NCBI GenBank assembly: GCA_958009085.1
Contig: OY253683.1
Span: forward strand, 868,001 to 932,000
DNA from: Protoeuglena noctilucae
Lineage: Eukaryota
Length of the DNA: 64,000 nt
Direction: 5' to 3'
The translations under genes and the position numbers were made by a program. The notes beneath the pieces are model-generated. The model was not told the origin of the DNA and made no database searches. It was given only the letters and a program-made list of their open reading frames with translations. This document shows, in pieces, positions 13,696 to 43,656 of the stretch (the stretch's first letter is position 1; the number at the start of each line of letters is the position of its first letter).

Positions 13696-16600
13696 TCACG
13701 CCTTGACATCCGCGAGCCTCCCCAGCACCGTCAGGCACAGCTGGAAGAACGGAGCGACCGTGCTCACATCCACACGCTCATCGGGAGAATGTGCTCCAGT
13801 GATGGTCGGCCCAAAGGACACCATGTCCATGCCCGGCGCGCGCTCCCCGATAATCCCGCACTCCAGCCCCGCGTGGATGGCGCCGACGACGGGATTTGAT
13901 CCGTTTGACATGTTGGCGTATTCCTTTTTCACCACTTGCACGACTTGCGAGGAGGGGTCGGGGGCCCATCCGGGATAGGATGCCTCGCGAGTGACGGTGG
14001 CGCCGTGGGACTCGGAGATGAACTGGATGTGGTCACTGGGAAGGAGGGAATAGGGGAAGGGAGGGGGTAACGAGGTAAGACGTCACCGCAGCAACTTGAG
14101 CGTGTGCGTCATGCATACGGTTCATGTTGTGATCGACTGTATCCGGATGCCCCACTCAGCCAGTCAACCACCCCCACATCCCACCACCCCCCTCACCGCA
14201 GCTCCTCCAGTGCGTGTGTCATGCTCGACCGAGTGCACGTCACGATTTCAAACGCCACCCCATCTCCACCCTCCACCCCGTTACCCCCATCGCCCCTCCG
14301 CACGCTCGCCACGTTGTTCGACGTCTCCACCAGTCCCGGCAGCGCGTGGGACATCTTGTGAACGCCGTGGGGCAGAGATCGCAGCAGCCGCAACAGGCGA
14401 GTGGCGGAGGAGGGGGTGAGGGCGGTGGTGGGTTCGGGTGCGGGTGCGGGTGTGTGTGCAGAGTCGCTGTGCTCGGTGAGTGATACCAGGAGGTGTTTCT
14501 CGAGGTATCCGTACTCCAGGGACATCTGGGGGGGGAGGGAGGGGGATGGGGATGAGAGTGGGGGGTGAGGGGGCGTGAGGGGTATGGAACATGAGCGGGG
14601 TGAGGGGGGGTGGGACATGATGGATGTGTGTGGCGTTGGTGGGGGGGGGGGAAGGAGCCTGTTCCGCAATCACCAGTAGTACCACCTCACTATCCACGAC
14701 AGTCACAGCCACCATACCCCCCCTCCCTCGCCTGTTCCGCGAATATCAGCACCACCTCAGTCACCATCTACTGCAGTCACCCCCACCATCGCCTGCCCCT
14801 CGCCTGTTCCGCGAATATCTGCGCCGCCGCCACCGCGCGCCCCTCGCTCCCCGCGGGCACCGCCACCGCCGCCCACCCCTCGCGCGAGATGGCGTTGCGC
14901 TTGTCGCCTGCACGCATGTCCAGCAGCCGTGCACCGGGGACAGCATGAGCACGCGAGCTGCACCCGCTGCCACCATCTGCGTCGCGTTGCCGCGGCCCTC
15001 GTGGATGTTGAGGCCCGAGTGGCCGCCCATGAGGCCTGGGGGGGGGGGGGGTTGGGGGTGTGGGTGTGGGTGTGGGTGCAGGTGAGGGTGGGGGTGTGGG
15101 TGGGGGTATGGGTATGGGTGTGAATGGGGGTGAGGGTGTGGGTGGGGGTATGGGTATGGGTATGGGTGTGAATGGGGGTGAGGGTGTGGGTGGGGGTATG
15201 GGTATGGGTGTGGGTGGGAGTGAGGGCGGTGCTGGTGAGTGGGAGTGGCAGGTGTTCCACAGGCACGCTCGCAGTTGCGATGCCAACCATGCGTGATTGT
15301 TTGTCATGACAACAGATGCTTAGCCACAATGTCGCCACCCCCATCCCCCCCTCATCCGTCACACTCAGCCACACCATCCCCTCCCCCATCACCACCCATC
15401 CCTCCCACCGCCCCCTCACCCGTCACGCTCAGCCGCATCGTCACCATCCCCTCCTTCATCCCCTCCGTCTCCACCAGCACACGTATCTTGGTGTCCCCAC
15501 CCCCCGCGCACCCCACAAACACGTGACCCCAGTCCTCGGAGTCGAGATTCAGCAACGTGCGGCCCGTCAGCATCGATCCGTCCAATTGGAATGCCCCGGT
15601 CATGCCCGTCTCCTCATCCACCGTGAACTGAGGGCGCGCGTTGATTGGGGGGGTGTGGTTGGTGATAGTACGGGGAGTGGCATGTGGGCATCGCATATGG
15701 AGTGGCGTGGATATCATGGTATGTGATGTTGAAGTGCACAGAGACGCCGAGTAACATCGATGCACGTTGAAGGCGCAGGTGGCGCGTGTTGTGCAAATAC
15801 AGCAAGCGCAGGTGGGGGTGCAAGGGGGCTGGTAAGATCTATGGCGGCACTCCAGAGGCGGCAGCTGGGCAGTGGTAGGCATGTGAAGCATTGCCATCCT
15901 CACCAGTCACTATAACACCGCGCTTAATCATTAACCCCTTTCCATTCATTCCCATCCCTCACCAGGCACTCCAGGGGCGGCAGCTTGGCCGATGCGGGCA
16001 TGTCCAGCAGAGCGAGTGCCGTGGCTGCACCCACACCATTGTCAGCACCCAGCGTCGTCCCCACCGCCGCAATCCAATCCCCGTCACGCTTGCACCGCAC
16101 GGGGTCCTTCAGGAAATCGTGCTCCACGTCCGCGTTCTGCGAATAGACCCACAGTGATGTAGGTATTGTGTTATGAGTCACTCCAGCTGGGCTGGGCTGG
16201 GCTGGGCTGGGGCGGTCACGTTCGGGAGCGCTCGAGGGCAAGCAAGCGGCCGCACACTGTGACGCGGCCAGGGGGCCCGTGACACCGCCGTAACGATGCA
16301 CAGTGTGCCTCTTGCAACTATTACTGTCTTTTAGAACACGTATCTCCTCGCCTTCTCGGTGACCATGTCGACGTGGTTCTGCACCGCCACCGGCACGGCC
16401 CCCTCGCCGCCCCCGGACCCGGGCCGGCGCACGACGAGGTTGCCCACGGCGTCGCGCTGCCACTTAAGCCCACGCTCCTCGGCGAACGCGACGATGTAGT
16501 CCATTACGCGCTGCTCCTTGCCAGACGGGCGCGGGATGTTGGTCAGCGCGAAGAAGTGGGGCCACACGGGCGTCTGCGCCTCCTCCGGACCTGCGAGGCC

Positions 16601-16715
16601 ACGCGGTGGGAAGAATAGTGATCGGAAAAAGCCGCGTGGGGGCGCACGAGGGGCGCGAGGGCCGCGATGGCTCACGGAGGAGGGCGAGCTTTTCCTCGAG
16701 CGTGGTGGCGACCAT
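13696..16715 (-). CDS. pepD: Aminoacyl-histidine dipeptidase (peptidase M20C), multi-exon
   Basis: IPRPSGKE, QNHVDMVTEK|NADVEHDF, GTTLGADNGVG, FTVDEETGMTGA, LLNLDSED, GGHSGLNIHEGRGNA, LVETSNNVA, IHAGLECG, SFGPTITGAHSPDE. Confidence 0.95.
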
Positions 16716-17155
16716 CGGAGCCGCCGCGACGGAAACCGCGATGTCGCGCGGGGAACAGGCGGTGGATAGCTGCGCGCTGCGGCCTCCTTGCGCGGATCGG
16801 GGGGTCCACGAGTGCACACGGCGCCACAGGGCCAGCCTCATGGACGCGGGGCCGCGGCGACGAGGGTGGCTGACACGCGACGACGAGGGGATGCAGCGCG
16901 TGTCCTGGACGGATATGCCGCCCGACGCGCCGGTGGGACGGGCATGAAGCGGCTCGCGGGCGCCGGTTTCAGGGCGCTCGATGCGCCAGAGGGTGCCGAA
17001 GTGCGTCGCCGGGCCGGGGCTTTTTGGGTCGGCGTCACCGGATTCGGTCTCAGAAATGTAGTGCTAATAGATGGGCGAAGTTTTGGGAGGGGCCGTATAC
17101 TGTACCTGGACGCACGTTTCCGCATAGATATACTGTGATTTCGACATTTCTCATC

Positions 17156-17275
17156 GTGAGCGGATCAAACCACCGAGAAAATACCTGGTCCCATAAAAAC
17201 CCAGAAGTCAAGCTCGGTTGGGCTGGATCAGTACGGAGGTGGGGGACCACTCTGGAACCTCCAGTGTCCGCTTGC
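17156..17275 (+). rRNA. 5S rRNA gene (120 nt)
   Basis: Helix I GTGAGCGGAT/GTCCGCTTGC, Box A-like AGTCAAGC, CAGTAC element, Box C-like GGTGGGGGACCAC, GGAA motif. The layout matches eukaryotic 5S. TATA-like GATATAC lies ~30 nt upstream. Confidence 0.92.
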
Positions 17276-17281
17276 CGACCC

Positions 17282-17285
17282 TTTT
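17282..17285 (+). terminator. Pol III oligo-T terminator of the 5S gene
   Basis: TTTT 6 nt after the 5S 3' end. It is also present in the inverted copy (AAAA at 24858-24861). Confidence 0.7.
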
Positions 17286-17451
17286 GTCTCCTAATCGAGT
17301 CGCGGCGGTGCATTTACCCTACCCGGTCGCGGCCTTTCCCCGACGCGGGCTCCTTTTTGCGCCAGACGTTTTACTTTTGCATGTCTTGCCGGAAAATCGG
17401 GCCGGGCCGAGCGCGGATGCAAAATTTATACCCCTAGCCCTCTGCAGCCAT

Positions 17452-19167
17452 GCCACACCCTTCTCACGGACCACGCCCCCCCACACACCTCACCTCACAC
17501 GCCCAACCAGACTCGCCCTTTTCGCAAACCCTCCTGCCCCACGCACTCCCCCCCTAGCTGCACAGGTAAGGCTCAGCACCCTCTCCTCACAGCTAATGCC
17601 CAGGTGAGCACTCGCACCCCTCAGCGCATCACTCCCCACGCACCAAGCACCACACACTGATCCAGCACAGCATCTGCACCTCCTGACCTCCCCCAATCAC
17701 GCACAGACCTCCTCGCATCCTCCCACGACCACCCTCTTTGCCAGCCGCAGGTCAGGACCCACACCGACACTCATCCTCCGTCACGCACACCGTCACCTCT
17801 CCCTGACCGCAGACCTGGACGGACGCGCACACGCACCCTTGCCTCACCCCTAGCCCTCTGCAGCCATGCCTCGCAGGCCCTTGGTGTCCCACAGCCGCCA
17901 GCGCTCACCCGTGGGGCGTCTGCTCCGTCGCCGTTGCGGCGCGCCCCGCACACCCACGGTACTGCGCGTGCCGCGTGGCCTCCCCGCCCGTGGTCCTTCA
18001 GGGGCTCTGGCGCTGGTCGGGTGGGTCCGCGTGGGGGTCGCCAACGCGTCGCCTGTGCTCCAGCCAACGTGAGAGACCAGCCCCGCGGGGGGGGCTGGCA
18101 AAGGGTGCGACGAGGGACAAACGTCGGGGCAGAGCTGGCAGCAACGGGTCGATGGGCTCAGACAGTGGCGAAAGACGTGGCGCCCGTGGGGTGGAACGCC
18201 GGGGATGTCGTGGGAACACCCGGCAGTGGCGCAGAACGGACCAGGCGCCACAGGATCAGAGAGCGGCGTGGCTGCGACGAGGCGGGGAGAGTGGGAGCGC
18301 AAGCGGGGCCGGAGGGCCTGTCTTTGGGAGTCTGCTGAGGAGGCCCTGCAGGAGAGCAACGGACGGCGAGGGGTGCTGGCGCCCGGCGGGGGCGACCCCT
18401 CGCACGACAAACAGCAGGGCAGCGGGCTTTTGAGGGCGGGCGCGATGGCAGCGCGGCAAGAGCGAGCGGCGGCGGCGAGAGTAACACAAGGGGCATCGAA
18501 TGGTGTGGGTGGGCATGGGCTGAGCGACACAGGGGTGTCGGGTGTTTGGGGGGGCGACGGGGGCGCGAGGCAGGCCACGGTTATCAGGGCGCGCGGGTGC
18601 GCGTGAGCGGGGGGCAGGCCTCGGTTATCAGGCGCGCGGGTGCGCGGAGCGGGAGGTGGGCCAAGGTCGTCAGCGTTAAAGGGCCAGGGTCGCCACAGCG
18701 TCGGTTGAAGGTCGTCAGCGCATTTGGCCAAGGTCGTCAGCGTGATAGGCCAAGGTCGTCAGCGTGATGGGCCAAGGTCGTCAGCGTGACAGGCCAAGGT
18801 CATCTGGGCGTGTGGGGGCGAGGAGTTGAGGGACGGGACAAGGCCGACGGGCGCGGGAGAGGACGGGCCACGGGCCAAGGTCGACGTGCGGGAGCGAGGA
18901 GCGGGGTCGCGTCGTGGGTCTCTGGGCACACGGCCGAGTGGGTCGTGCCGGCGCACGCACCCGGAGCGGGGCGGTCTGGGGCGGTCCACATGAGAGGCAG
19001 CCGGCCCTCAGGGGCGCAGCGTGGGCGAGCGGGGCGCCCAGGGGCAACGCTGCGCCCCCCAAGGAACGCCGTCTGCGTTCGGACCGCCCCCACCGCCCTC
19101 GCGTCCGGGCCAGCGTGGCCGGGTGGGCGAGCCAGCCGGGCCGCCTGAGGAGGATGGGAGGAGGGTA
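17452..19167 (+). repeat. Left arm of ~1.7-kb inverted repeat; probably a short 5'-truncated copy of the retroelement's 3' region
   Basis: Reverse complement of 19713-21421 with scattered substitutions and indels. Ends at the N gap. Confidence 0.9.
18659..18802. repeat. ~20-bp GGCCAAGGTCGTCAGCG subrepeats (mirror copy ~20078-20200)
   Basis: Several tandem imperfect copies are visible in both arms. Confidence 0.85.
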
Positions 19168-19367
19168 NNNNNNNNNNNNNNNNNNNNNNNNNNNNNNNNN
19201 NNNNNNNNNNNNNNNNNNNNNNNNNNNNNNNNNNNNNNNNNNNNNNNNNNNNNNNNNNNNNNNNNNNNNNNNNNNNNNNNNNNNNNNNNNNNNNNNNNNN
19301 NNNNNNNNNNNNNNNNNNNNNNNNNNNNNNNNNNNNNNNNNNNNNNNNNNNNNNNNNNNNNNNNNNN
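19168..19367. other. Assembly gap (N run)
   Basis: About 200 N bases. Confidence 1.
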
Positions 19368-22300
19368 TCAACAGTCGAGGGGTGCTATGACTCTCAGAGC
19401 CACGCCTTGCGGCAAAAGTGCCGTCCCCCGGGGCAGCTGACACCCCGGGGTTTCCATCGTTGCAGTGCATTTGGCACGTGGCCCGCCCCCGCTAGGTCTC
19501 CCCACCCAAAGGCAAAGGGGTCGCCCACCCCGGGTTCTTGCACCCCTAGCCCCCTCGCTGCGCCCTAAGGCTGAATCGCCGTCCCGGAGTGGGACGATGC
19601 AGCCGCGGGGGCCCTCCGTGGAGACCCCCGGGCGTCTATTACAAAAGGTGAGGCCGAGGCTAATGACGATCTGTGTAGCTTATGTGCGGCCAATCATGAC
19701 ATCCCCCGCTCCCTACCCTCCTCCCATCCTCCTCAGGCGGCCCGGCTGGCTCGCCCACCCGGCCACGCTGGCCCGGACGCGAGGGCGGTGGGGGCGGTCC
19801 GAACGCAGACGGCGTTCCTTGGGGGGCGCAGCGTTGCCCCTGGGCGCCCCGCTCGCCCACGCTGCGCCCCTGAGGGCCGGCTGCCTCTCATGTGGACCGC
19901 CCCAGACCGCCCCGCTCCGGGTGCGTGCGCCGGCACGACCCACTCGGCCGTGTGCCCAGAGACCCACGACGCGACCCCGCTCCTCGCTCCCGCACGTCGA
20001 CCTTGGCCCGTGGCCCGTCCTCTCCCACGCCCGTCGGCCTTGTCCCGTCCCTCATCTCCTCGCCCCCACACGCCCAGATGACCTTGGCCTGTCACGCTGA
20101 CGACCTTGGAGTATCGTTTTGACGACCTTGGCCAAATGCGCTGACGACCTTCAACCGACGCTGTGGCGACCCTGGCCCTTTAACGCTGACGACCTTGGCC
20201 CACCTCCCGCTCCGCGCACCCGCGCGCCTGATAACCGAGGCCTGCCCCCCGCTCACGCGCCCCTGCGCATCCAGAGGACCTCGGCCTGCCTCGCGCCCCC
20301 GTCGCCCCCCAAACACCCGACACCCCTGTGTCGCCCAGCCCATGCCCCCCCACACCACTCGTTGCCCCTTGTGTTACTCTCGCCGCCGCCGCTCGCTCTT
20401 GCCGCGCTGCCATCGCGCCCGCCCCCAAAAGCCCGCTGCCCTGCTGTGTGTCGTGCGAGGGGTCGCCCCCGCCAGCGCAACCATGCCGGGCGCCAGCACC
20501 CCACGCCGTCCGTTGCTCTCCTGCAGGGCCTCCTCAGCAGACTCCCAAAGACAGGCCCTCCGGCCCCGCTTGCGCTCCCACTCTCCCCGCCTCGTCGCAG
20601 CCACACCGCTCTCTGATCCTGTGGCGCCTGGTCCGTTCTGCGCCACTGCCGGGTGTTCCCACGACATCCCCGGCGTTCCACCCCACGGGCGCCACGTCTC
20701 TCGCCACTGTCTGAGCCCATCGACCCGTTGCTGCCAGCTCTGCCCCGACGTTTGTCCCCCGTCGCACCCTTTGCCAGCCCCCCCCAACCGGGCTGGTCTC
20801 TCACGTTGGCTGGAGCACAGGCGACGCGCTGGCGACCCCCACGCGGACCCACCCGACCAGCGCCAGAGCCCCTGAAGGGCCACGGGCGGGGAGGCCACGC
20901 GGCACGCGCAGCACCGTGGGTGTGCTGGGCGCGCCGCAACGGCGACGGAGCAGACGCCCCACGGGTGAGCGCTGGCGGCTGTGGGACACCAAGGGCCTGC
21001 GAGGCATGGCTGCAGAGGGCTAGGGGTGAGGCAAGGGTGCGTGTGCGCGTCCGTCCAGGTCTGCGGTCAGGGAGAGGTGCCGGTGTGCGTGACGGAGGAT
21101 GAGTGTTGGTGTGGGTCCTGACCTGCGGCTGGCAAAGAGGGTGGCCGTGGGAGGATGTGAGGAGGTCTGTGCGTGATTGGGGGAGGTCAGGAGGTGCAGA
21201 TGCTGTGCTGGATCAGTGTGTGGTGCTTGGTGCGTGGGGAGTGATGCGCTGAGGGAGGCGTGTGCTCACCTGGGCATTAGCTGTGAGGAGAGGGTGCTGA
21301 GCATTACCTGTGCAGCTAGGGGGGGAGTGCGTGGGGCAGGAGGGCTTGCGAAAAGGGCGAGTCTGGTTGGGCGTGTGAGGTGAGGTGTGTGGGGGGGCGT
21401 GTTCCGTAAGAAGGGTGTGGCGTGGGGCTGGCAGGAGGAGGGGTGGGAGATGATGCGTGCTGAGCAGGAAGGTGGTTTATGTGGGGGTCCATGTGGAAGA
21501 GGAGAGGGGGTTGAGAGGTGAATGTGTGTATGTCAGTGGTGATGCGCAGTGAGTGGGCAAGAGTGGTGCTGAGCGGCGAGATCGGGAGATGAGTGACGAG
21601 GGTGCGTGCAGAGAGTTAGAGGGCGTGTGTGGTCTGGTTGGAAGAGGCATCTACCTGTTAGCTGCGGGCATGGACGGGGAGGCGTGGCATGCGGGTGAGT
21701 GCTGCTGGGGCAGGGTGCGTGTGCAGTGAGATGTGGGGGGTGGAAAGTGTGCGTCATAGGAAGGCAGTGGGCTGGCTTAGGGACCTGGTGGGAGCAATGC
21801 GGTCGGGTGGATGTGGGAGTAATGCAGATTGGGGTGGGGTGGCATGGCCGGCTGCGGGGAAGGTGTAGAGCAGGCGTGTGAGTAAAGCTGTCGAGTGTGC
21901 GTCCGAGAATCTGCGAGGCATGCGAGAGATGGAGCGTGGGTGCGCAGAAGCCCTTGGTGTCCCGAGCGCCGGCACCCTCCCCGTGAGACGCCCGCCCTTG
22001 CCGCCACAGCGCGCCCCACGCCCCTGCGGCTGCGCGGGCATCGCGTGGACCCCCCCGCCCGCGGCCCCTCTCAGGCTCCGGCTCCGGCCAGGCAGCCCAG
22101 GGGGTCGCCGGTGGCGCCGCCGTGCGGTACTCCAGCCCATATCATCCTGGGTACAGGGGAGCTTGTTTTAGCCGGCAGACGGGCTCTTCCGTAGATGCTC
22201 AGTGTGGCCGTGGACGCCCCAGTTGGCCGGGGCGCCGATGCCGGAACGAGCAGCCCGAAGGCCACCCGTCCGGCGCCGGCGCCCCGGCCCGAATGTCGTG

Positions 22301-24722
22301 GGGTGATGGCGTGCTGCGAATGATGAGGCCCCCTCAGGGGAGTAGCGGCTCGACGGCTGCCCATGTGGGCGCAGTGTAGGTGAAGGTGGACCTCGCCGGG
22401 TCCCTTGGGTGTAAGAGGGCGTCGTCAGGGTGCGTGCAGCGCGCGAGGGCCCGCCCGCCCCGGTACGCCGCCAGAGCGACAAGCTCCTCGGCCATAATGC
22501 GCGTCATCTGCGCGAACAGCTGTGCCGGGGACGCATCCGCCCCCGCGTCCTTCGTCAGCTGCTGCCGCCTGCGCCAGATGACCTGCACGGTCGCCCCCGC
22601 CACGACCGCCCACGTGAGCGGCCCCAACCGCGCGCCCTCCGGCACGCGCAGCAGGAAGAGGGCCGACGGGCGGAGGGGCGCCCCCTGCGCCCCCCCCGCC
22701 CACGCCACGATGCCCCTCGCCACGCGCCACACCTCCCGCGCGCGCGAGCACTCCCAGAACGCGTGGGCCGCGCTGTCCTTTCCCATGCACGCCTCCCCCT
22801 CCTCCGTCAGCAGCGGGCACTCGTCCCGCTCCGCCCAGTACATCCTGTCCTGCGTAGCCCACCCGTCCGCCAGCGTCAGCCACAGCCGCTCGTGCAGGGC
22901 GTCCGACAGCGGCAGCCCGTTCAGCGCCACCAGCGTGCGCCTCAAGCCCTCTCCCGTGACGCCGTGCCCCTCCCCCAGCGCCGCCGCCCAGCCCTCCGCC
23001 TTGCGCTCCAGCCGCTGCCGGATCGCCGCCCTGTCACACGTCGTCCTCGCCGCCTCCCGCACCGTCTAGGAGGCTAGGTCCAGCGCCGCCCTGGAGGCGA
23101 CGCCGGGGTCCAGTGCCCAGCCCGGCGCGGTGGCCGTCATGGGCCGGTAGAAGTCGTTGGCCTCCCCGCCGCCCGGGGAGGCAAGTCGCAGGCGCTCCAT
23201 GAAACCCTCCGTGAGCGCCAGCCCGTCCCACGGGTCCCATTGCCCCTCCACGTCTGGCCGGGCATACTCGTTGCCCGGCCCAAGGAGGCCCAGGTCCCGC
23301 ATAAAAGCCCCAACCACCCAGCCGAGGCCCCTCCGATCCACCCCCGGCAGCCGATCATAGCCCAGCGCGAACGCCCAGGAGACCCACGTGTCCCATCGCC
23401 GCGCCGGGTCCCGAATGCAGAGATAATGCCCCACAGTTCCGAATCCCCGTAACGCCATCGCCCTCCCCACCGGGTGCAGGAGGAGGGGCCGGCCGCCCCC
23501 CGCCGGCCGCCCAGCACCCCCCTCGTCGATCCCATCATCCGTATTGTCGTCGCCCGACGCGCCGTCGTGCACCCACGCCCCACCAGCCCTCCCATGGACG
23601 CCCGTCGCGAAGCTGTGGAGCGATGAGGCCGAATCGTCTTGGTCCTGTCCCATGTCGTTGTGGAGGGGGCCAGCTGCCCCCTCCATCGCCGGCGCCCCCA
23701 GGCCTGCCACCCCCGCGCCCGGAGCCCCCCCGCCGGCGGCACAGAGGACCCCCGGGGTGAGAAGCGACGCGCAGAGTAGATCCCCCTTTGTAGTCCCAGT
23801 GACGGGGGTGAAGAAGTCCGTAGAAGAGGCGAAACGAGAGCCGTCCGTGCCCGCCAGGCCCCCGCCGCCCACGCGCGCCCCCCGCCAGCCATGCCCGTCC
23901 ATGGCCACGTTGGACAGGCGGTCCGCCAGGGCGTTCTGCTCCCGTGGCACGTGCTCCCAAGTGATGTCGAGGCCCGCCGCGAGCCTCTGCGCCTCGGTCC
24001 ACAGCGGCACCATCGCCGGGTGCCGCAGCACCGAGCAGTCCCGCGGGTCCATGGCGCGGATGACGAGGAGGGAGTCCCCCCGGACGCGGAGCTTGGTGGC
24101 GCCGAGCTCGACTGCCGCGCGCAGCCCTCCCAAAAGCGCGGCGAACTCGGCCTGGTTGTTGGAGGCCCCGCGCACGGCGGGGCCCGCGAGCTCCAGCGTC
24201 TCCACCCCCTCGCCTGCCCCGGCCGCCAGCACCGCCCCCGCGCCAGCCGTGGACGTGTCGGAGCCGTTGCCCCGCGAGCCCCCGTCGAAAATGAGCGTCA
24301 GCAGGCCCTCCGCCGCCAGGCCGGTCCAGCGCTGCCGGGCGACCTCGTCCGTCGTGGGTGCCAGAGGTGGCCGCGCGTGCACGGGCCCGAGGGTCGCGCG
24401 CAGGGTCCCGAGGCCCTTGATGGCGTCGCAGAAGCTCTCGAGCGCCGGCAGCTTGCCCCGCAGGCGGCGGGACTCGATCAACTGCGCCACGTAGCAACCG
24501 TCCGTCTCGGGCAGTGAGAAGGGCAGCAGGCCCAGCCGGCCTGCCCCGAGCCCCTCCAGGCACGCCGTGAGGATGCCAGCGAGACCGTCCAACTGGCCGT
24601 GAGCGCCCACGCGCTTCGTGATGAGGGCGCGCGCCAGGTGCCGGAGCCGCCGCGCCGCCGTGTGCGCGTCCAGCGGGAGGGCGCCCAGCCCCCCCTCCTC
24701 CGGCGGGGGGGCATCCGCGCGT
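19368..24722 (-). mobile_element. 5'-truncated L1/Tx1-like non-LTR retrotransposon (ORF2 C-terminal part 24722-22334 plus long putative 3' region); 3' limit uncertain
   Basis: Post-RT PPEEGGLG motif. RNase H (FDGGSRGN, SNNQAEFAAL, GDSLLVI, HVPREQNALADRLSN). zf-RVT CCHC (CPL...C...DSAAHAFWEC...VW). RT core and endonuclease are absent. One in-frame TAG at 23066-23068. Confidence 0.85.
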
Positions 24723-24867
24723 GCATCCGCGCTCGGCCCGGCCCGATTTTCCGGCAAGACATGCAAAAGTAAAACGTCTGGCGCAAAAAGGAGCCCGCGT
24801 CGGGGAAAGGTCGCGATCGGGTAGGGTAAATGCACCGCCGCGACTCGATCAGGAGACAAAAGGGTCG

Positions 24868-24941
24868 GCAAGCGGACACTGGAGGTTCCAGAGTGGTCCC
24901 CCACCTCCGTACTGATCCAGCCCAACCGAGCTTGACTTCTG
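24868..24941 (-). pseudogene. 3' part (nt ~47-120) of the split 5S rRNA gene
   Basis: Reverse complement matches 17202-17275. Confidence 0.9.
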
Positions 24942-24947
24942 CACTGG

Positions 24948-25290
24948 CAGTCGTAGCCCCCCGGCCGGTTCTCGCACCTCCCCGCCCCGCACAGCCCCGG
25001 CGTCTCGGCGCACTCGTCCACGTCCACGCACCGCGCCCGGCCCCCGAACGTCCCCTGCCGGAACCCCTCCGCGCACTCGCACCGGTACGACCCCTCCTCG
25101 TTCACGCACGCCCCGTGCGGCCCGCACTCGTGGCTGCCGCTTGCACACTCGTCCACGTCCACACAGGTCGTCCCGTCAAACGCGTATCCCGCGTTGCACT
25201 TGCAAGTGAAGCTCCACCACTTGTTGACGCATTGCCCATGGGGCCCGCACAGTCCCCGGTCCAGCGCGCACTCGTCGACGTCCCAGACCC
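24948..25290 (-). pseudogene. Tandem calcium-binding EGF domain fragment (3 units), cut by the 5S junction
   Basis: DVDEC...C...C.N..GSY.C.C repeats. The third unit ends at GGYDCQC, then 5S sequence follows. Confidence 0.85.
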
Positions 25291-25479
25291 AGTCATGCAC
25301 AGCGCGGTAGCCCAGCACGGAAGAGATTGCCCACAGCACTGCGGGACAAGGAAACCTTGCAACCGTCATGTTTTGGATTGCGGCTGGCAGTGTTTTCCAA
25401 GCCTGCGCGTGTGGACCTGACCACATCGTTTGTGCATGTGTAGCGGAACGACACCATGGAGGTCGTCACAGCTACTCAC

Positions 25480-27902
25480 CCGCCAGAGAGACGAGCGCAG
25501 AGACGATGAGCGCCACTCGCTGTCCTGCTGAGGGCCACCGCTGCATCGGCGCTTGTAGTCCCTCGTCGCCGATCCTGTTTCCCTGCAGCAAAGGACACCA
25601 GGCCCCGTGTCGCTCGAGACGAGCAGCAGCTGCCCCCTGGCTCCCGATGCTATGCATAGTGCAGCAATCAATCGCAGGGACGGCAGCTTGTTTGCCAGCG
25701 GCTGCACGGGTGCGCCGATCATTCCCACGGACCTGTCCACCTCTTCCCGCGGGCTCGTCCGCCCTCGCCACCACCACTTCGGCCGGCTGCACGTCGGCCC
25801 ACCGCACGCCGGCCTCCCGCACCGCCGGCAGCCGCGACACTTGGTCCCACACGCCCCTCCGCAGGTGCGCCGGCACCCGCTCCGACTGAAACGCCACCAC
25901 GCGCCGACGATGCTCCTCGCGCTCTTGCGCCCGAAACTCTTCCTCCCTCCCAAACAAGTTTGGCCTACGCGGGTTGCGCGCGCACCCGGCCACGTGCGCG
26001 TGCGCGTCCTCCCCGCAGTCCTCCAGGCACCACCCGCACAGGTGCACCCCGCACCCCCCATCCGCCGGCGCGCACCACAGCGCCATGCACCTCTGGAAGT
26101 CCCCCACTGTCGCCGGCCGCTCACACCTCGGGCACCGCATCACATTCAGCTCCTCCTCCACCAGCTTGCGGTACGCGTCTACGGCCTTTTCAGAGTCCTT
26201 CGTCTCCCCCTCTCTCGCCAGGCGCCTCAGCTCCTCCAGCTCCTTCGCCCTCTCCTCTCTCTCGACATCCGCAGCGTGCCGTCGGGCGGCAGCGAAAAAC
26301 ATCGCTATCGCCCCTTTCTCCGGCAGCTTCTCCACCACCACCGTGCACTCGAACACCCCGTCGCACGCCTGGCCCGTGCAGTCCCGGCACTTGAGGTCCC
26401 CCGCCGCATTGAAGGCTGCCCGATTCTCCGCCAGCGTCGCCACCTTGCCCGCGAGGCAGTCGCCGCACACGCAGTGCGCTGCCCCGGTGCACTTGGCTAT
26501 CTTGCTCACGTCCTCGTCACACATGCACACGCAGCACTCCACGCGCCTGCGCGGGGGCGACGCCGGGCTGTCGGAGGCAGGCGACGTGACACAGCAACCC
26601 TTTGCACCAGCCATCCCATCGCAGATCCTCAACGCCAGAGGGTGACTGCTCGCAGTCACAGCCAGGGACACTAGCAACACCTGCATTTTACCTGGAGGCG
26701 CTGAGGGTGTCGCGAGACGCTCGTGCCGCCCTCAGCATGTCGGCCGCACTCGTCCGATCCTGGGCCTCAAATCGAAGCGCCCCCTGCACCGCCGACCGCA
26801 GCGGCTCCGGCACCGACTCAGGCACTTCCGGTAATCGCTTACGCACTATCACATCGGTCAAGATCTGGTTCCTGTTCTTGATGCCATGAGGCGGCTGTCC
26901 CGACGCTACGTGGCACAGCGTCGCAGCTAGCGCGTACGCGTCCGACGCTGCCGTGTGCGGACCCAGCTCCGTGTCCCACTGTTCGGGGGGCATGTAGTGC
27001 TCCGTGCCCATCCCATCCACGACACGAGTGCCCCGGGACGAGACCTGCGGGGGGACCACGACGGGGTTCACGGCCCATGGCTCGCCATGCACACCGATGA
27101 CGAGATGGCCAGACACCGACGCAGACTGAACCGCTAGCCACTCGCTGAGCTCCCTTGCAGCCCAGCTACGCCGCCGCCTCACCGACACCTTCATCGCGCC
27201 CTCGGCGACGGTCGCCAGCCCAAAGTCCGCCAGCAGCAAGGTGCCGCGATCGTCAATCAGCACGTTCTGGGGCTTGATGTCCCGGTGCACGATGTTGCAG
27301 TGATGCAGGTCCCGCAGACCCTCCAGCAGCTGTATCGCCACCTCCACCACTTCGTTCGGTGGCAGGGCCCCCTCCTCCGCGATGCGCTGCGCCAATGACC
27401 CCCTCTCGTACAGCGGCATGACGATGTGGAGCTTTTTGCCTATGTTGGAAATGCCCAACAGCCTGCAGGAGGAACGCGCACCACCGATCACGACACCGCA
27501 TGCACAGAGCCCGGCGTCCCGGCCGACAGTCGCAGGCAGAAGAGACAGATCCACTCACGGGCACACGCGGTTGCTGTGCATCGCCGCCTCCGCCATTCGC
27601 TGCATCTCCTTCATGCCGCGGTCGAGCACGCCCTCCCAGGTCCCCTTGGGCACACCACTACTGTCCACGTTGAATCGCTTGACAGCCACATCGCACTCGC
27701 GCGACAGCCACCGGCCACGGAACACCTCGCCCTGACCGCCCTCGCCCAATGACTCCCCGATCTGCAAGTCCTCTCCCGGAATCACGGGGACCTTCAAGGC
27801 AGCGCCTTCCGGGGTCACCGCCGGTGTGTCCGCCATCCCTGCAGGCGCGAGGAGCATGCCCATCCCTGCGGGCGCGAGGAGCATGCCCGGTTCTGATACC
27901 AT
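25480..27902 (-). CDS. TKL-like kinase - RING - IBR-like zinc finger protein (copy B) followed by a degenerate LRR-like exon; possibly a pseudogene
   Basis: [40 protein letters not shown]...C...HCVCGDC...C..C. IBR-like CPRC...CMALWC...CGVHLCGWC...[18 protein letters not shown]. Confidence 0.8.
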
Positions 27903-28797
27903 TCAACGTTTTGTTAGGGACTGGAGGCGCTGCTACCGCAGCACATGGTCCCGGTGCGGAGGCTGCACATTCTTGCGGGCGCAGCGGGCGCAGCGGGCGC
28001 CGTTGGGTCGCACGCGAGCCACGCCCGCGCCTCGGAGCTGGGTTTTATGCATCTAGCGGTTTGGTGCCAGGCGCCTGCCTTAACGCAGACAGCCTCGCTG
28101 CTGCACCTCACCCAGGTGCGGACCCCTCCGGTTGGCCCTCGACGCTCGCTTGGCCTTCGCGCGGCCCGCCATCGCGCCCTCGTCTGCGGACACGCCCGCC
28201 GCGCCCCGTCACAATTGCCGAGGCACGTGGTCCCAACACCGCAGCCGTGGCGTCCGAGGCCTCGCGTCCGCCCCGTCCTGCCCAGCACCTGCGTGTCTCA
28301 CTCACACGTCCTGCACCCGGAACCCTCGGCCCCCGAACGATGCGGCGCGGACGCAGACGAGGCCTCAAGCTGCGTGACGTGAGAAGGCCGTTTGAGCTCA
28401 CTCCGCTCGCGCGCTCGCAACCGATGGCTCAGGCTCGCACCCGATGACTCGCGAGGTGTGCGCTGCGCCGGGCCCGAGCCTCGCGAACGGTCTCCTGGCC
28501 GCGCGGGGAAGGCCCCGTGTCGGTTGCGCGCCAGACCTGCGCAGGAGTGCCGCCGTCTGCGCCGATTCGCGCGCCGGCCCGGCCACACGTCAGCAAGTGT
28601 CTCCGATCGCGTCCCTGCACCCAACGATTCCCCCGGGATGCGCGGAGGCAGCCTCGACCGACCCGGCCGCGTTCATCCTTCACTTTCTATCGTCCGATCT
28701 ATCAACATAACATGGGCCCTGTCTACCGGATGTCGTTGCTGCATGCCCATCCAGTGCACTGTCAATGCGCTATCGCTGTGCGCTTTTCGCGACTCGT

Positions 28798-29551
28798 TCA
28801 CAAAGACGCCAGCACGGTGGCCCACAAGGGGTTCAAGATGGCGAGGATCTCGTGCATCTCTTCCACCGACGCGGTGTTGTCACCTGCGGCGAGAGGCAAG
28901 ACGGAAGGCTTGTGACAGCTGCTGGATCGAGGCCAACATGGCTTGCAGGAGTCCCCATCCCGGGGCTCACCGTCGTCGTCAATGATGTCCATGACCGCCT
29001 GCGCGAGGCAGTGGCCGTAAATCTTGTCGCCGCGCTGCACGGCGGTCTTGGGCGTGTAGGCCTCCACGAACCAAGCCCCATCCGTGACGCAGACCTCGTC
29101 CGATTCGGACAGGTCGTCCATCAAGGACTCCGTGGTGCTGCGGGCAGTCAGATAGGGCCACGGATCGGCGCGTGGGCGCGAGGGCCGTTCGCATGGACCG
29201 CACGATGCGATTGGGGGCCGCCTCGGTCTCACCACACCGTCAGCCTTGCCACAGCGTCGCGGAGACCGCGGATCGCGTTCTTGTCGAAGCATGTCTCTGC
29301 GAGCGGGTGGAGATGGCGTTCGCAAAAAGCGATTAAAACGGTTTACGGTTTGGGTCAAAACCACGCGCGGTTTCGCTGCCGACGAAAACACGCAGTTCCA
29401 CGCAGAATGCATGCTCACCCTCCACATCCCGATCCCAGGGCGACTGGTTGGCCAGCTTTACAGCCGAAACCAGCGCGGAGTTGATGGCCATCGCGGGAAC
29501 GGCCAGCGCCGCGCCCAAGAGCGCAGCCAGGGCGATTTTCCGCGACAACAT
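28798..29551 (-). CDS. Small secreted protein with an EF-hand-like loop (paralog A), spliced
   Basis: Signal peptide MLSRKIALAALLGAALAVPAMA. Spliced loop DDDG|DNTASVEE. TGA at 28798-28800. Confidence 0.7.
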
Positions 29552-29896
29552 GGCTGCCTGTGTGTGCTGTGCGGTGGTGGCAGTAGAGGGATGTGAGTTG
29601 GAGGGCGCTACGGCTCGCAGATCAGAGACATGCAGATCAGAAACATCAGAAACAGCAGAAACAGACGCGAGTTCCCGTGCGCGAAAGCGCCTAAGGACGG
29701 ATTCTATATCCCCTGTTGGCGTCCGGAGGGCTCGGGCGTCCTGCAGGGCGGCCTGGATGCGCATGCATGACGCGCTTCTCGTTGCTCAGAGCCTTTCGCG
29801 CGCAAAGTCCGGGCCGACCACCAGGTCCGGATCATTTCAACGCTAGCAGCCCTAGCTACACTGCTATCCGCGACGATCACTGGCCACGCGCGAGCA

Positions 29897-31380
29897 TCAG
29901 CACTGGGCATCCACGAGATCCGAGAGCTCGCGATCGTTCTCCTTGACGTAGTCGATGATGCTGCCTGCGGACATCGAACCAAAGAGACCGTCCGCGGTCG
30001 CGCCCGTCGCGTTCGGCGGACGCCGCAGCGCCGTCGCGAAACGACCGTTGAGGCGGCGCCACCCTCGCCGCGCTCACCGATCTGGTGCACGTCATCGGGG
30101 CAGAAGGAGTTCTTGCCCAGCGACTGAGTGAGCAGGATGTCGATGGCGCTGCGGGAGGGGCGAAGTGAGGGTCCTCGGGTCACGCTGGCGGACATGCGGC
30201 CGTGCGCCCCAAGCCAAGCCAGGCAAGCCATGCAGTACAGCTCGCGCTCGCACCAGGTGATCTCCTTGACCTCGCGGGGGCTCAAGTCGAAGAGGTCGGG
30301 GGCGAGCAGGACCAAGTCGGCGACCTCGCCAGTCGACACGCAGCCATCGCCTGCGGGGCGGGACGGGGGCGGCCGGTTGGTATGCTGCCACGAGAAGCGT
30401 GTCCGGGGCACGACCGCATCGCATCGTATCGCTCACCGTCCGTGTCCATGATGGGCATGAGCGCGGTCGTCACGCACTCGCCCACGGCCTCCCCCACCGT
30501 GCGGATCTGGTCCCCCTCGTCTGCACGCGCTTACGACGAGGGATCAAGCTGCGACCGCCACGCGCTCTGCACGGATCCCGAGCGCAGCAGTGGCAGCAAT
30601 TGCACTCACCCATCATCATGAAGTCGAACATCTTGCCCTCCATGTCGTTCATGCAGAGCTCATCCGAGTCGCTCAGGTAGTCCATGACGGCCTCCGTCGA
30701 GCTGCGTGGGCGACCGCGAGCCTCTCCTTCAGCGGATACGCGCGCGGCAGCTGCTGGCGTGACCCCACGCCGCGCGCGCGGGGGCGAGAGGCAGTTGCAT
30801 CTCTCACCAGGTGATGAAGTCGAGCGCGGCGTCGCGGATGACACGGATGCCGTCCTTCGGCAGACAAACATCTGCAGAGACCAGAGAGGGGGGCGGCGCG
30901 CGGTCAGTCCCACGGCCGGCACGCAGAACGCACAGTTGGAGAACGGGTCAACGGCCGTCCCAGCCGTCGGCGTGGGGGGCGGAAACAGGCAAATCATCGC
31001 ATCCCGGAACTTGTGTCCGTTTTCTTCGACGAATTCCGATCGATTGGGTGCGGGGGGCATCGGGATGCGCGGCAAGGCCACCCGAGGCCATCCATCGGTG
31101 CCCCCTGCCGCTCGGGGGGCATCGCGTGCGCCCTTGGCCCGTGGGGATCACAGAGCTCGAAATCTGCGCCTCAGGCGCAGGATCGCCCTACCCCGACGCG
31201 CGGTACGCCGCGCCGGGGCCGCGATCGGCTTTCCCTCGCAGGGGCGCGCGCGGCCTCACCCGAGGGGTCCAGGTCGCCGTTCATGACCTTGAGAACCGTG
31301 GCGACGTGGTCGCGGACGGCCAGCGCGGGGAGGGCCAGAGCGGACGCCGCGAGGGCGCCGATGACAGCCTTGCGCATCAT
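29897..31380 (-). CDS. Small secreted protein with an EF-hand-like loop (paralog B), spliced
   Basis: Signal peptide MMRKAVIGALAASALALPALA. STEAVMDYLSDSDELC aligns with TTESLMDDLSESDEVC of paralog A. Loop DTDG|DGCVSTGE. Confidence 0.7.
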
Positions 31381-32044
31381 GGTATCGTCGTGGAGGTGAG
31401 CGAAGCGAGGTGGCGAGCGAGATGTAGCCGGCTCATGGCGCGTAACCTGCGAGTCTGGATTTTCCAAAGCCCTCAGGGGTTTCCCCTGGGTTAACTGCCC
31501 CTGGGTTGACTGCCCATGCTCAGTGCCCCCCGGATTCGCGTGCGCGCAATCTAGGAGAGTAGGAGCATTGTGGAGCCCGTCCAGAGACGCGGTTGGAGAT
31601 CTGCATGCATCTCCGGCCATGTCTCGTGGCTGGACAGGTGCGGTTCGCGACGATTTTATCGTGCGTGGGGGACTTACGTGCGCCAGAATCCGCGCGCTTG
31701 CACGCCCGTGGCGCGCCTGAGAAACAGCGTCCGTCGTGGGCCATGCCCCGCGCGACTCTCCGCGGACCCGCGGTGCCCACCTGCGCTTGCTGTGCTCCGG
31801 TACTCATTTGGAACCTGTACACGGATGCGCACGGCTTCCCGCCGTCCCATGCGGGCCTCCCGCAGCCTCTCATCAGCCAGGCCCTGGAAGCTGACTCAGG
31901 GGGCCCTGCTGAGGAGCTGCTGAGGGGCCGCAGACGACGCTCGATCCTCCCCTCCCTCCCGACGCCATGCCTGCAGGGCGGGGGCTGGCGGAGGACGCGG
32001 AATGTGTGCCGCTCCCCTTCGTGTCGGCCTGCTGCCCCCCCCAA

Positions 32045-35000
32045 ATGGCCGCTCACGCGTCGTGGACGGTGGACCGCTTCATCCGACTCCAGAAAATTGG
32101 CGAGGGCTTTGCGAGTCACGTCTTCCTGTCCATCGATACGCTCGGCCGAATGCGAGTTGCGCTGAAGGTGTGCCGACCTCGCGTTGGGAGTGCGTCTGGA
32201 CCGCGCCGCCGCGGCTCTGTGACGCGTCACCTGACCGGTTATGCGCTTCTCTTCTTCAGATATATCAGAAAAAGAACCTGACCCCGGCGCTCCTGGCCGC
32301 GGTGCGCCACGAAGTATCGGTCCATGGCCGGTGCGTCCACCCGCACGTCCTGCCCCTCCTGGCCGCATTCGAGGACGGCGGCTATCTGTGCATCGTCACG
32401 TGGTGAGCACCGCGCCCAGGCGGAGGTCCCAGGGACTTCGCAGCCCCCGCACGACTGCACGTCATGTGCGCTGGCCTGCACGGCTTGCAAGCACCCGGTC
32501 CCACACTGGCTGCCAGCGAGTTTGATACCGCGTTTTCCCCCTCTCACCCAGCATTGCGGAGAACTCGGATCTCCACCGCCGCCTCCCCGACATCCGCCGC
32601 GACGAGCCGACCGTGGTCAAGCACATCTTGGGGCCCCTGCTCTCGGCCCTCGCGGCCCTCCACATCGCGGGGTACATCCATCGGGACATCAAGCCTGAAA
32701 ACATCATGCTGCAGGCGAGGGACGGCTGCACACGCCAGGGCCGCCTGCATACTCGCTCCCATGCCCGCACCTCACACGCCCTCGCCGCCCTTACACCCTC
32801 TTCCGCTCATTGCCTGCACCCCCACCCCTGCTCCCGCGCTCATTCCCGGATTTCCGGCACTCCCTACTCCCAACCCTACCCTCTGACCCACCCCCGCTCC
32901 CACACCCACGCCCGCCCTCTTGGCCACCCTCACTGCCGCCCTCGCACCCTCAGCCCCACCCTCACACCGCCTCCCCCGCCCCCCCCACTCCCCCCAGGGC
33001 TCCCACGCCCTCCTCGCGGACTTCGGCTTCGCCATCTGCCACCGCCGCCGCCGCGCCGTCACCCGCCTGGGCACGCTGCAGTTCATGGCGCCCGAGGTGG
33101 TGCTCAACGACCCCGACGACAAGGCCACGCATCGCGCCGCGGTGCCCCGGGACGTGCGCCTGCCATATTCTGACGCGGTGGACGTGTGGGCCTTGGGGGT
33201 GGTGGCGTACGAGTGCCTGACGGGCACGCTGCCCTTCCCGGGGACCACTGACGATGAAGTGGTGGAGGCCGTGCTGAGGAGGAGGCCGCAGTACCCGGGG
33301 ACGCTCAGGTGAGGGGGAGAGGGAGGGTGGCAGTGACGGTGGAAGCGGTGAGAGTGAGGGTGGCAGAGCGAATGTGGCGGGGTGGGGGAGAGTGAGGGAA
33401 GCGAGTGCCATGATTGAGGTGATGCGTCTTTCATGCTGCGATCGTCGTCATCGTGTCATCGCTTCTCGTGCTTTCCAGTCGCGATGCGGTGGAGTTCCTG
33501 GAGCTGTGCCTGGCCTACGACCCCGGCAAGCGAGGATCGGCCGTCGACCTCTACTACCACCCCTTCGTGAGTGTCACGTTGATCACGCTCACGTTCACGC
33601 GCACATTCAGCCACGCACATTCAGCCACGCACATCCAGCCACGCACACCTCGCTGCGCGGCACGTGTGCCTGCTGCGCTTCTCACGAGCACGTGTGCCAC
33701 CTGTACCGTCCATGACATGTCGTACTTGCACAGCTGCACTGCTCACTCATGGCTCCCACCCCACGCACCCAACCCCGCCCCTCCCATCTTTCAGGTCCGA
33801 AAGCACATGCCGCGCGACCACTGGCACAGGCTGGAGCCGTCCCATTGGGCTTCCCCCGAGGCAGCCGCCGCGGCCATGGCGGCATTCCCCGCCCTCGTCC
33901 CATCCATGTACCAGGTGAGCGCGCGACGTGCCATGCGGGTCGCAGAATGCGAGGATCGATCGTCGGAGCCAGCTCCGCCCACGACGAGCCGACTGCGGTC
34001 GACGGAAGCAAGCACCGCAAGCGGCGTGCGCCTCAGAGACGCCCACACCCCTCCCTCGCCCCCCCTTCCACACCCATCCCCCTCCACCCCTCCTCCCCCA
34101 CCCCGCTCTCTCCTCCCCTCTCCCCCAGGCACCCCCGCCAGGCACCGCCGACGACGGTGCCGGGCCCGACTCCCCCACCCCCTCCGCCATCCGCCGCGCG
34201 TGCGGCTCCTTCGCTCGCCCCAACCACGAGCCGGACGCCGTCTCTCTCGGAGACCAGCGCGGCCGCTTCCGCGCCCAGCACTCCCAGGTCCAGTCCAGCG
34301 CGCCGTGCCCCTCGCCCTCCGTCGCGGGGTCGGCCGCCAACTCGCTCCCCATGGGGAACGCCCCGATGCCCTGGGGCCCGCTCACGCGCGACTGGAGCGA
34401 CCCCGCCAACGCCCCGCTCGGCCACGGCCACGGCCACGGCCACGGCCGCGCCGCGCCCAGCCGCATGCGCGCCGGCGACCCCAACGTGGCCCTCCGCGCC
34501 CGCGCCGTCCAGGGCTCGTTCGCCCAGGCAGCCGTCGCCACGGTGCACAAGTCCGCGCTCAGCTCCCCCGCCCTCGCGTCCGCCCGTGTCCGCTCCCCCC
34601 CCCGGCCCCCCCAAGTGGCGCCCCAGGCGGGGTCATCCACCACCGGCCCCTCCCCCTCCGGCCGCAACTCGGTCACGCTGGGCATCGGGCTGTGGCACAG
34701 CCTCTACCGGGTGCGGCCCGCGCCGGCGGGCGTGCTGCACGGCACCGCGTCGGGGGAGGGGGGCGCCAGTGAACGGACCACGCAGCCGGGTGACGCGGTG
34801 TGCGGGCGGGGCGGGTCCGTGGGTCGGCCTCTGCGCCTCGCGGACGCCGGGCCGTCGACGGTGGAGGGCGGGGTGGTTGAAACGGTCGAGTCTGGGGAGG
34901 TTCTGAGGGCGAAGTCGTTCAAGGCGGCGAGGGCTGCGGGGGGGAGCAGGGGCGCAAGGGGGAAGGTGAGGGCGGGATGGGGTGGGTGGGGAGTGGTGGA

Positions 35001-35547
35001 GTGGGTGGGGGGAGTGGAGGTGAGGGCGGGATGGGGTGGGTGGGGAGTGGTGGAGTGGGTGGGGGGAGTGGAGGTGAGGGCGGGATGGGGTGGGTGGGGA
35101 GTGGTGGAGTGGAGGTGAGGGCGGGATGGGGTGGGTGGGGAGTGGTGGAGTGGGGGGGGGGAGTGGAGGTGAGGGCGGGATGGGGTGGGTGGGGAGTGGT
35201 GGAGTGGGTGGGGGGAGGTGGAGGGTGTAGCGGTGGGGTTCAGCGGAATGCAGGTGCGCGGAAGGGCCACGTGGGCTTCTGCGCGATTCGCTCACCTCAC
35301 CTCACCTCACCTCACCTCACCTCGCCTCACGTCACCTCACGTCACCTCACGTGACCTCACCTCGCCTCACGTGACCTCACGTGACCTCACCTCACCTCAC
35401 CTCGCCTCACCTCGCCTCACCTCGCCTCGCCTCACCTCACGTGACCTCACCTCACCTCACCTCACGTGACCTCACCTCACCTCACCTCACCTCGCCTCGC
35501 CTCCCTCGCAGGGTTTTTTCCAACGCGTGTTCGGTTGTCTGGGATGA
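32045..35547 (+). CDS. Aurora-like Ser/Thr protein kinase, multi-exon
   Basis: IGEGFASHVF, VALK, VRHEVSVH...HPHVL, HRDIKPEN, ADFGFA, GTLQFMAPE, DVWALGV. Last exon GFFQRVFGCLG-TGA. Confidence 0.85.
34962..35222. repeat. G-rich tandem repeat (~5 units, each with AGGTGAGGGCGGGATGGGG) in the last kinase intron
   Basis: Read directly. Confidence 0.9.
35291..35500. repeat. (CTCAC)n pentamer satellite in the same intron
   Basis: Read directly; includes CTCGC and GTGAC variants. Confidence 0.95.
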
Positions 35548-35728
35548 CTCACTTTTGGCCCCATCCACGAGGCCTCTCGACTATGCTTGTAGCCCCTCCA
35601 GCATGCATGCGCTGCGTTCGGCACGCCCACGCTCGCCCCCGACATTGGGCGACCACCCTGAGCTGGCGACTCTGAGACAAGATGCCGGCCATTTTGTTTT
35701 TTTTTTGCTTTTTTTGTTTTTTTTGTTT

Positions 35729-35918
35729 GCCTCTTATCCCTCACCTGGCATCTTATCCCTCACCTGGCATCTTATCCCTCACCTGGCCTCTTATCCCTGA
35801 CCTGGCCTCTTATCCCTGACCTGGCCTCTTATCCCTGACCTGGCCTCTTATCCCTCGCCTGGCCTCTTATCCCTCACCTGGCCTCTGATCCCTCCCCTGG
35901 CCTCTTATCCGTCACCTG
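35729..35918. repeat. 19-bp tandem repeat GCCTCTTATCCCTCACCTG (~10 units)
   Basis: Read directly. Confidence 0.9.
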
Positions 35919-38020: not shown

Positions 38021-38334
38021 TTGTAGCAGATCACGCCCGTCTTGGGAGCCCCCGACACCTGCGTGTCCGTCAGCACCACATGACCGCCCCCCTCGCACTG
38101 CACCCCCGTTCCCACCACCCTCACGCCCTCCACCCGCAGCGGCCCGCCCCCGGCGGCCCTCAGAGCGTACCCCTCCCCCAACGCGGCGCTGGATGCCCGC
38201 AGCGTCCCGTTCCGCACCGTCAAAGACTGTCCACTCCGCACTGTCACCTCTGACGACAGCCTCCACTCCCTTCCCTCCAGGTCGATGACACCCCCTGAAG
38301 GGACCACCCCCCGCTCGAGGAAAGCTTCTCTCTC

Positions 38335-43651: not shown

Positions 43652-43656
43652 CTGCA

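Follow-up and report, generated by a model that had tools for sequence, protein, structure and literature searches.

Two 5S ribosomal RNA (rRNA) units in a 64,000-nucleotide (nt) window of Protoeuglena noctilucae contig OY253683.1 are each joined, at the same base 146 nt past the 5S gene, to a differently truncated copy of one long interspersed nuclear element (LINE). The window is eukaryotic DNA of about 65% GC, and all coordinates below are positions within it. Our results support a real, multi-copy, 5′-truncated element probably of the apurinic/apyrimidinic endonuclease (APE) type, L1/Tx1-like and with an RNase H of its own. We tentatively read the two junctions as separate target-primed insertions at one sequence-specific site, a reading to which we give a probability of roughly 45%. 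The units and the element copies are laid out as follows.

16843 to 17156, plus strand: block A, the 314 nt upstream of the left 5S gene, recurring within the window only at 44017-43705 (self-BLAST and alignment).
17157 to 17275, plus strand: the whole 5S rRNA gene of the left unit, the only 5S gene to reach the Rfam gathering score (RF00001, 85.5 bits, model positions 1-120).
17276 to 17421, plus strand: C, the 146-nt spacer downstream of 5S, ending in GAGCGCGGATGCA; its end is the candidate target.
17422 to 17447, plus strand: 26 junction bases of the left copy, unmatched elsewhere in the window when up to three mismatches are allowed.
17448 to 19167, plus strand: left LINE copy, only its distal non-coding part D, cut by the gap; no Pfam family in open reading frames (ORFs) of at least 165 residues.
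19168 to 19367: assembly gap of 200 Ns at the centre of the inverted repeat, concealing both 3′ ends.
19368 to 19713, minus strand: right copy past the shared part, with the highest contig depth of the region; contig ends are loose at 19368 and contigs enter the gap.
19714 to 21425, minus strand: right LINE copy, distal non-coding part D.
21426 to 22333, minus strand: right LINE copy, non-coding stretch after the ORF stop, at high contig depth.
22334 to 24708, minus strand: coding part of the right LINE copy, namely the 3′-terminal two thirds of ORF2 (reading frame, RNase H motifs).
24709 to 24721, minus strand: the 5′ junction of the right copy, where 13 bases are added that include a repeat of the last 10 bases of C, the target.
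24722 to 24867, minus strand: the 146-nt copy of C in the right unit (self-BLAST and alignment).
24868 to 24941, minus strand: 3′ part of the right 5S gene, nt 46/47-120, directly next to an exon with an EGF domain (Rfam, 32.9 bits).
24942 to 43656, minus strand: block X, host-like genes with EGF_CA, protein kinase and beta-helix domains, which separate 5S nt 48 from nt 49 over 18.7 kb.
43657 to 44017, minus strand: 5S nt 1-48 (43704-43657) and the second copy of A (44017-43705).

Both copies of C end at GAGCGCGGATGCA, finishing in GGATGCA, at 17421 on the plus strand and at 24722 on the minus strand. The original prediction had placed the loss of homology at one shared position in the two units, and this is borne out. 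All three occurrences of the 10-mer GCGCGGATGC in the window are at these junctions. Past the target the left unit carries its 26 bases, which are vaguely similar to the element immediately 5′ of the entry point at 21425, and the right unit its 13; extra bases are common at LINE 5′ junctions. The left unit then joins the same sequence as the right about 3.3 kb further along, as had been proposed, the correspondence of 17452 to 21421 being confirmed by the match of 17448-19167 to 21425-19714 (block D; inverted, 95.3% with gaps, self-BLAST). The truncation points differ accordingly: the right copy starts at about residue 576 of P0002, a 965-residue protein described below, and the left copy some 3.3 kb nearer the 3′ end. 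In both copies the sense strand of the element is the sense strand of 5S, so that the predicted shared orientation also holds. Both visible 5′ junctions (2 of 2) lie at the same base, but in paralogous units of equal divergence.

The left unit runs from A through the whole 5S gene, C and the 26 odd bases into D and the gap. Read on the minus strand from 44017, the right unit consists of A, 5S nt 1-48, block X, 5S nt 46-120, C, 13 bases, a 3.3-kb stretch that we call Y (24708-21426) and D, up to the gap. By self-BLAST, 16843-17204 corresponds to 44017-43657 (A plus 5S nt 1-48; 97.8% over 362 nt), and 17202-17421 to 24941-24722 (5S nt 46-120 plus C; inverted, 98.6-99% over 220 nt). The two units are close paralogues, with 10 mismatches among 578 bases of A and C (98% identical). 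Two premises of the original prediction had to be corrected. It spoke of two 5S units as if both were whole; the left alone is, and the right is a 3′ fragment found in the permissive mode of Rfam at 24867-24981 on the minus strand, below the gathering cut-off of 38 bits because just a 75-nt piece (nt 46-120) is present. Its missing nt 1-48 are found 18.7 kb away together with the 314 upstream nt, beyond the host-like gene block. It also treated the centre of the arrangement as uninterrupted. The left D arm ends exactly at the gap. The run of 200 Ns occupies the middle of the inverted repeat, and the palindrome depends on a scaffold join.

That the right unit enters a LINE ORF2 in mid-protein, as first proposed, agrees with the reading frame found there. 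Y opens on a single frame (24721-22337, minus strand) with one in-frame TAG at 23068-23066 and its stop codon at 22336-22334. Pfam identified an RNase H domain in this frame (RVT_3, 2.3e-12), and all four catalytic motifs, DGGSRGN (24286-24266), NNQAE (24160-24146), RGDS (24082-24071) and ALADRLSN (23932-23909), all on the minus strand, align to solved RNases H, the best matches being Rv2228c, Halobacterium RNase HI and Sulfolobus ST0753. The claim of an RNase H-bearing LINE is therewith upheld. Past a long low-complexity linker lies a C-x9-C-x7-H-x4-C motif (22819-22748, minus strand). Within the 795-residue remnant, RNase H occupies residues of about 146-271 and the CCHC motif 635-658, about 360 residues downstream. 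An exhaustive HMMER search returned 4643 proteins at E ≤0.001, nearly all through the RNase H domain, and six at 1e-30. The ORF2 remnant gave no match to longer proteins in the search against these.

P0002 is another copy of the element. Its residues 576-728 correspond to 24706-24248 at 94.8% and its frame-shifted tail to 24239-23538 at 96.2% (tblastn). Upstream of the point at which the window copy starts, it carries a reverse transcriptase (RVT_1, residues 217-452, 3.2e-24), a domain absent from both copies in the window. Y thus represents, as predicted from sequence, the 3′-terminal two thirds of the ORF2 of an L1-superfamily element, truncated between the reverse transcriptase and RNase H domains, and the order in ORF2 is reverse transcriptase, RNase H, long linker and CCHC motif, followed by a non-coding tail of at least 3 kb. 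The best solved relatives of P0002 are five human L1 ORF2p sequences (E 1.7e-25 to 4.4e-25, residues 9-485), then five R2 proteins (1e-9 to 4e-8). Its start aligns at about residue 315 of L1 ORF2p, so the gene model is without its N-terminus. The best of 28 long P0002 relatives, a Chlorella protein (29% identity, E 3.5e-58), has a reverse transcriptase and two families of the endonuclease/exonuclease/phosphatase kind (PF03372, PF14529). A cluster look-up of seven family or related proteins gave a name for one only, a Diplonema protein sharing RNase H and reverse transcriptase.

The in-frame TAG at 23068-23066 is also found in P0003, a 97%-identical fragment that ends there, and P0012 (49%) has a tyrosine at this position and reads on. 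The TAG seems, judging from these sequences, to be common to copies of this LINE family. The public gene model of the locus, P0001 (757 residues, 23069-25340, minus strand), one of the six proteins at 1e-30, runs as a single protein from EGF repeats across the 5S fragment and the spacer into the LINE ORF. It is an annotation artefact, an open frame in GC-rich DNA.

The copy state of the element was assessed from assembled contigs of four public runs in two studies, some of which may be the assembly's own source; the runs containing the region are labelled as marine metagenome or with a coded organism. Contig depth is a rough sign of repetition only, from which no copy number was derived. Nothing was inferred from the near absence of cover at 17336-17669 in run X1 or the little cover at 24709-24911 in run X3, and run X5, with a small share, was left out. 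The unique flanks (16000-16667 and 25018-26000) have depths of 8-11 in X1 and 12-17 in X3. On Y the corresponding depths are 55-117 and 84-193, and on the right D arm 43-128 and 20-245; contigs on 19714-24683 have about 6-12 times the flank depth in these two runs. Among the pieces listed, contigs from three of the four runs cross the Y/D boundary at 21425/21426 (21234-21728, 21271-21608 and 21287-21684), and Y and D therefore belong to one repeat family, D not being a private spacer. Members of the family differ by 1-3% in these contigs. At the 5′ junction, a high-depth contig tracks the window to 24708 and then continues with 186-255 unlike bases in all four runs. The first letters beyond 24708, translated by hand, are the P0002 residues that precede its match; hence the right copy is truly 5′-truncated. 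Towards the gap, depth climbs further at 19340-19673, resembling the 3′ end of a 5′-truncating family. Either the stretch is the 3′ end of the LINE, present in many copies, or it is a different, short and abundant repeat.

Other features of the tail can be noted. Depth at 19340-19673 reaches about 490 in X1 (unique flanks 8-11), several-fold that of the rest of the element. Four 22-base tandem units resembling GGCCAAGGTCGTCAGCGTGAT lie at 18682-18804 and 20077-20177, the two arms differing by one unit, and a 48-base self-complementary hairpin lies at 19011-19058.

If the two insertions were separate, an endonuclease of the element would nick a defined sequence in this 5S spacer and the nick would prime reverse transcription. 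Complementary DNA of variable length would then be attached, together with a few additional bases, to the upstream side of the target (...GCGCGGATGCA), and the process would have occurred twice, once in each 5S unit. Independence is favoured by the combination of one target base, two truncation points and two distinct sets of extra bases (13 versus 26). For a deletion to mimic this pattern, it would have to set in precisely where the target gives way to the added bases, which also favours independent insertions. According to PMC4494074, 5′-truncated copies are an accepted sign of independent insertion. Under this reading the endonuclease would be sequence-specific, and 5S spacers generally might serve as its target. 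The fuller proposal, an L1-superfamily LINE of a GC-rich marine eukaryote, with its own RNase H and an endonuclease that recognises a site in the spacer downstream of 5S, is one we regard as possible and somewhat more doubtful still.

Several observations weigh against two separate insertions. There are two junctions only, and they lie in paralogous flanks that are 98% identical. The D arms, with 45 mismatches in 1697 aligned bases and four indels, are no more diverged than the flanks, with 10 in 578 (Fisher p = 0.27). This equality is weak evidence because family members differ by 1-3% anyway. At 18838/20043 and 18871/20010 both arms share letters that differ from every contig, as expected of arms that were duplicated together. 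The arms are inverted around the gap, as would result from inverted duplication of an occupied locus. The exact target may be rare and the copies of the element more numerous, since A is present at about two copies and other 5S spacers differ. At 19450 two contigs leave the element for A-rich sequence other than this spacer, a weak hint of other flanks. The window shows neither a 3′ end nor a tail or target-site duplication, both 3′ ends running into the 200-N gap, and no endonuclease domain is seen in the family's own sequences, the P0002 model starting where it does. Of the original prediction, then, the same base joined to differing truncations stands; independence and site specificity are unproven, the units being paralogous and their arms and flanks indistinguishable by this test.

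The main rival, which we consider somewhat less likely, is a history in which a single right-type 5′-truncated LINE inserted near 5S, the whole unit was then duplicated in inverted orientation and the left copy later suffered a deletion. The left copy would have lost the 13 extra bases and 3.3 kb by end-joining, with the 26 bases as filler, and no target specificity would be required. The inverted-repeat layout around the gap, the equal divergence of flanks and element arms and the agreement of the arms against all contigs at two sites all fit such a duplication. Block A is at just about two copies by contig depth, the contig on 16852-17179 having about twice the flank depth, and the left 26 bases loosely resemble the element beside the break, as templated filler would. 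However, the deletion must have spared GGATGCA and taken all 13 added bases, starting precisely where the target ends, which we judge to be hundreds-fold odds against, and the presence of a LINE less than 150 nt from a 5S gene would be a coincidence.

We give only a small chance to the idea that the two units represent a filled and an empty site. Here D would be the landing neighbour, either 5S spacer or another repeat, the left unit would be uninserted, and the insert would be 24721-21426, with 8-26 target bases lost. A non-coding tail of about 0.9 kb is indeed more usual for a LINE than one of at least 3 kb, the left junction is plausible as an empty site, and contigs bridging Y and D are also expected if every copy sits in the same target. 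D, however, has high depth and low divergence like the coding part, while the spacers of other 5S units differ right past the terminator, as seen from loose contig ends at 17276 (X8) and 24866 (X3). D therefore behaves as young mobile DNA and not as old spacer. Depth climbs toward 19368, as at the 3′ end of a 5′-truncating family, the first 26 bases of the arms differ although target beside a 3′ junction should be unchanged, and no A-rich or repeat tail is seen at 21426-21460. The alternative offered with the original prediction, that the shared arm is rDNA spacer, is less likely for the same reasons, D behaving as young, repeated DNA.

A scaffolding artefact, in which two contigs ending in one repeat were misjoined and the palindrome is unreal, appears similarly improbable. 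The 200-N join lies exactly where both contigs end within the repeat, and no read or contig was seen across the gap. Such an error would alter the layout alone; both spacer/LINE junctions are within contigs, and the neighbouring EGF/5S junction is crossed by contigs in four runs of two studies.

Least probable are chimeric retrocopies made by a reverse transcriptase that switched, at varying points, from LINE RNA onto the 3′ end of 5S read-through RNA: U6-L1 chimeras do have a fixed small-RNA side and a variable LINE side, the pattern seen here, but RNA polymerase III stops at T runs and spacer C has four of at least four Ts between the 5S end and the junction, RNA from 5S +1 cannot carry the 314 nt upstream of the 5S start that both units share, and the right 5S break (nt 46-48) has its other half at 43657, which makes it a DNA break and not a 5′ truncation. 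Chimeras of this kind are mentioned in PMC4494074.

The interruption of the right 5S gene is a separate event. A contig covering 24912-26000 crosses the junction of the 5S piece with block X at single-copy depth in all four runs, and the junction is therefore real. The two junctions of block X read ...AACCCAG / TGCAGGCATGC... and ...GCCAGTGCAG / AAGTC..., and the 9-mer CCAGTGCAG occurs in the window at both of them only. We had considered this 9-mer as proof that the ends of block X were once joined. That argument is weakened, as four of its bases are 5S-derived at one end, and at one side GCAG is an intron tail, whereas at the opposite side it closes an exon. Bases 1-287 of block X recur as a 97.9% paralogue at 39386-39100, and what looks like the tail of an intron, with GCAG as its last letters, stands before that paralogue; block X therefore starts five bases before an exon, and its other end is an apparent exon end. 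It has no terminal inverted repeats, and no transposase or recombinase family was found in the 136 window ORFs of at least 165 residues scanned, so a transposon was rejected. The simplest account is that a 5S break at nt 48/49 was repaired with a captured segment of a tandem gene cluster, the microhomology being CCAG/CAG. Because 5S halves flank block X, the right unit must originally have been complete, and its 5S gene was broken at the DNA level. A right copy made as a read-through RNA retrocopy cut at 5S nt 46 was likewise rejected, the other 5S half ending at the same position 18.7 kb away. The 5S locus looks break-prone, one of its units having also been cleanly interrupted by this 18.7-kb host gene piece.

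Further observations concern the surroundings. In block X, a beta-helix ORF (37053-38020 and 42544-43098) is built of tandem 144-base repeats (85-95% alike) and has a paralogue 4.3 kb off (84%), from which it follows that the gene cluster is itself tandemly duplicated. At 15014-15265 lies a G-rich satellite of 6/12-base units (GGGTGT-like), with 14 overlapping 90-nt matches spaced mostly by 12 bases. The left 5S gene has A/A at 17195/17197, where every contig reported there in the four runs and the 5′ fragment at 43657-43704 have C/G. These positions fall in the stretch CAUCAGAAC, which we take to be conserved. The left whole 5S gene may be a variant copy or a decaying gene.

Searches of other collections for relatives of the locus gave little. 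A 24-mer from the 3′ end of 5S had no match in metagenome, prokaryote-genome and viral contig collections, nor had a 23-mer from the spacer end in viral contigs. Locus searches based on P0002 found no relatives in metagenome and viral contigs; in prokaryote genomes they gave one match, a cyanobacterial reverse transcriptase (31% over 92 residues), which we judged irrelevant. The translated 5S-plus-spacer block (73 residues), compared with proteins of 40-128 residues in search of other mis-annotated junction ORFs, returned none.

We know of no other spacer-directed LINE linked to 5S, nor of a 5S-linked one outside animals, and none of the target-specific families of the Tx1 group is known to have an RNase H. 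R1 and R2 are site-specific LINEs in 28S rDNA units, with variable 5′ junctions that have small target duplications or additions. R2 has a restriction-like endonuclease and a 28S target, and its solved proteins match P0002 far worse than L1 ORF2p does. The nearest parallel in target is Mutsu, described in PMC5340908 as a zebrafish LINE specific to the 5S rRNA gene, found in tandem with 5S units and having a defined target. The present element is likewise tied to 5S units. However, the Mutsu site according to that paper lies within the 5′ half of the 5S gene, whereas the junction here is 146 nt past the Rfam 5S end. Host and element lineage also differ, an RNase H is present here, and the specificity of Mutsu comes from many loci, against two junctions in our case. 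A review (PMC10946416) lists Mutsu as a LINE "into 5S" and describes unspecific transposon insertions as common in 5S spacers.

The Tx1 group (Tx1, Keno, Kibi, Koshi) comprises APE-type LINEs of the L1 superfamily that target U2, U5, 5S, satellites, transposons and microsatellites, according to PMC4494074. Our element would resemble them as an L1-superfamily LINE, probably of APE type, with a candidate fixed target. Its link to Tx1 is an automatic label only, the best long relative being named "Transposon TX1 uncharacterized protein" by a pipeline. In domain content it also resembles the L1 elements with an Archaea-like RNase H, plant Ta11 and an oomycete element, for which ST0753 is the reference type in PMC5348765. 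It shares with them an L1-like reverse transcriptase and an RNase H matching the type of Rv2228c, Halobacterium and ST0753. In those elements, as described in that paper, RNase H is the last domain and CCHC lies upstream, whereas here the order is reversed and CCHC follows RNase H by about 360 residues. Target specificity is not known for Ta11 and the oomycete L1.

LINEs with specific targets are rare natural cases of RNA- or protein-guided "safe harbour" insertion and are studied as leads for site-directed gene delivery. If a duplication followed by a deletion produced the two junctions, the element would be an ordinary LINE remnant within a rearranged, duplicated 5S region. If instead they arose by separate target-primed insertions, this would be a LINE family in a protist host, aimed at a spacer site adjacent to 5S and with an oddly placed RNase H. 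It would widen the range of targets and hosts of such elements and add a new pair of endonuclease and target.

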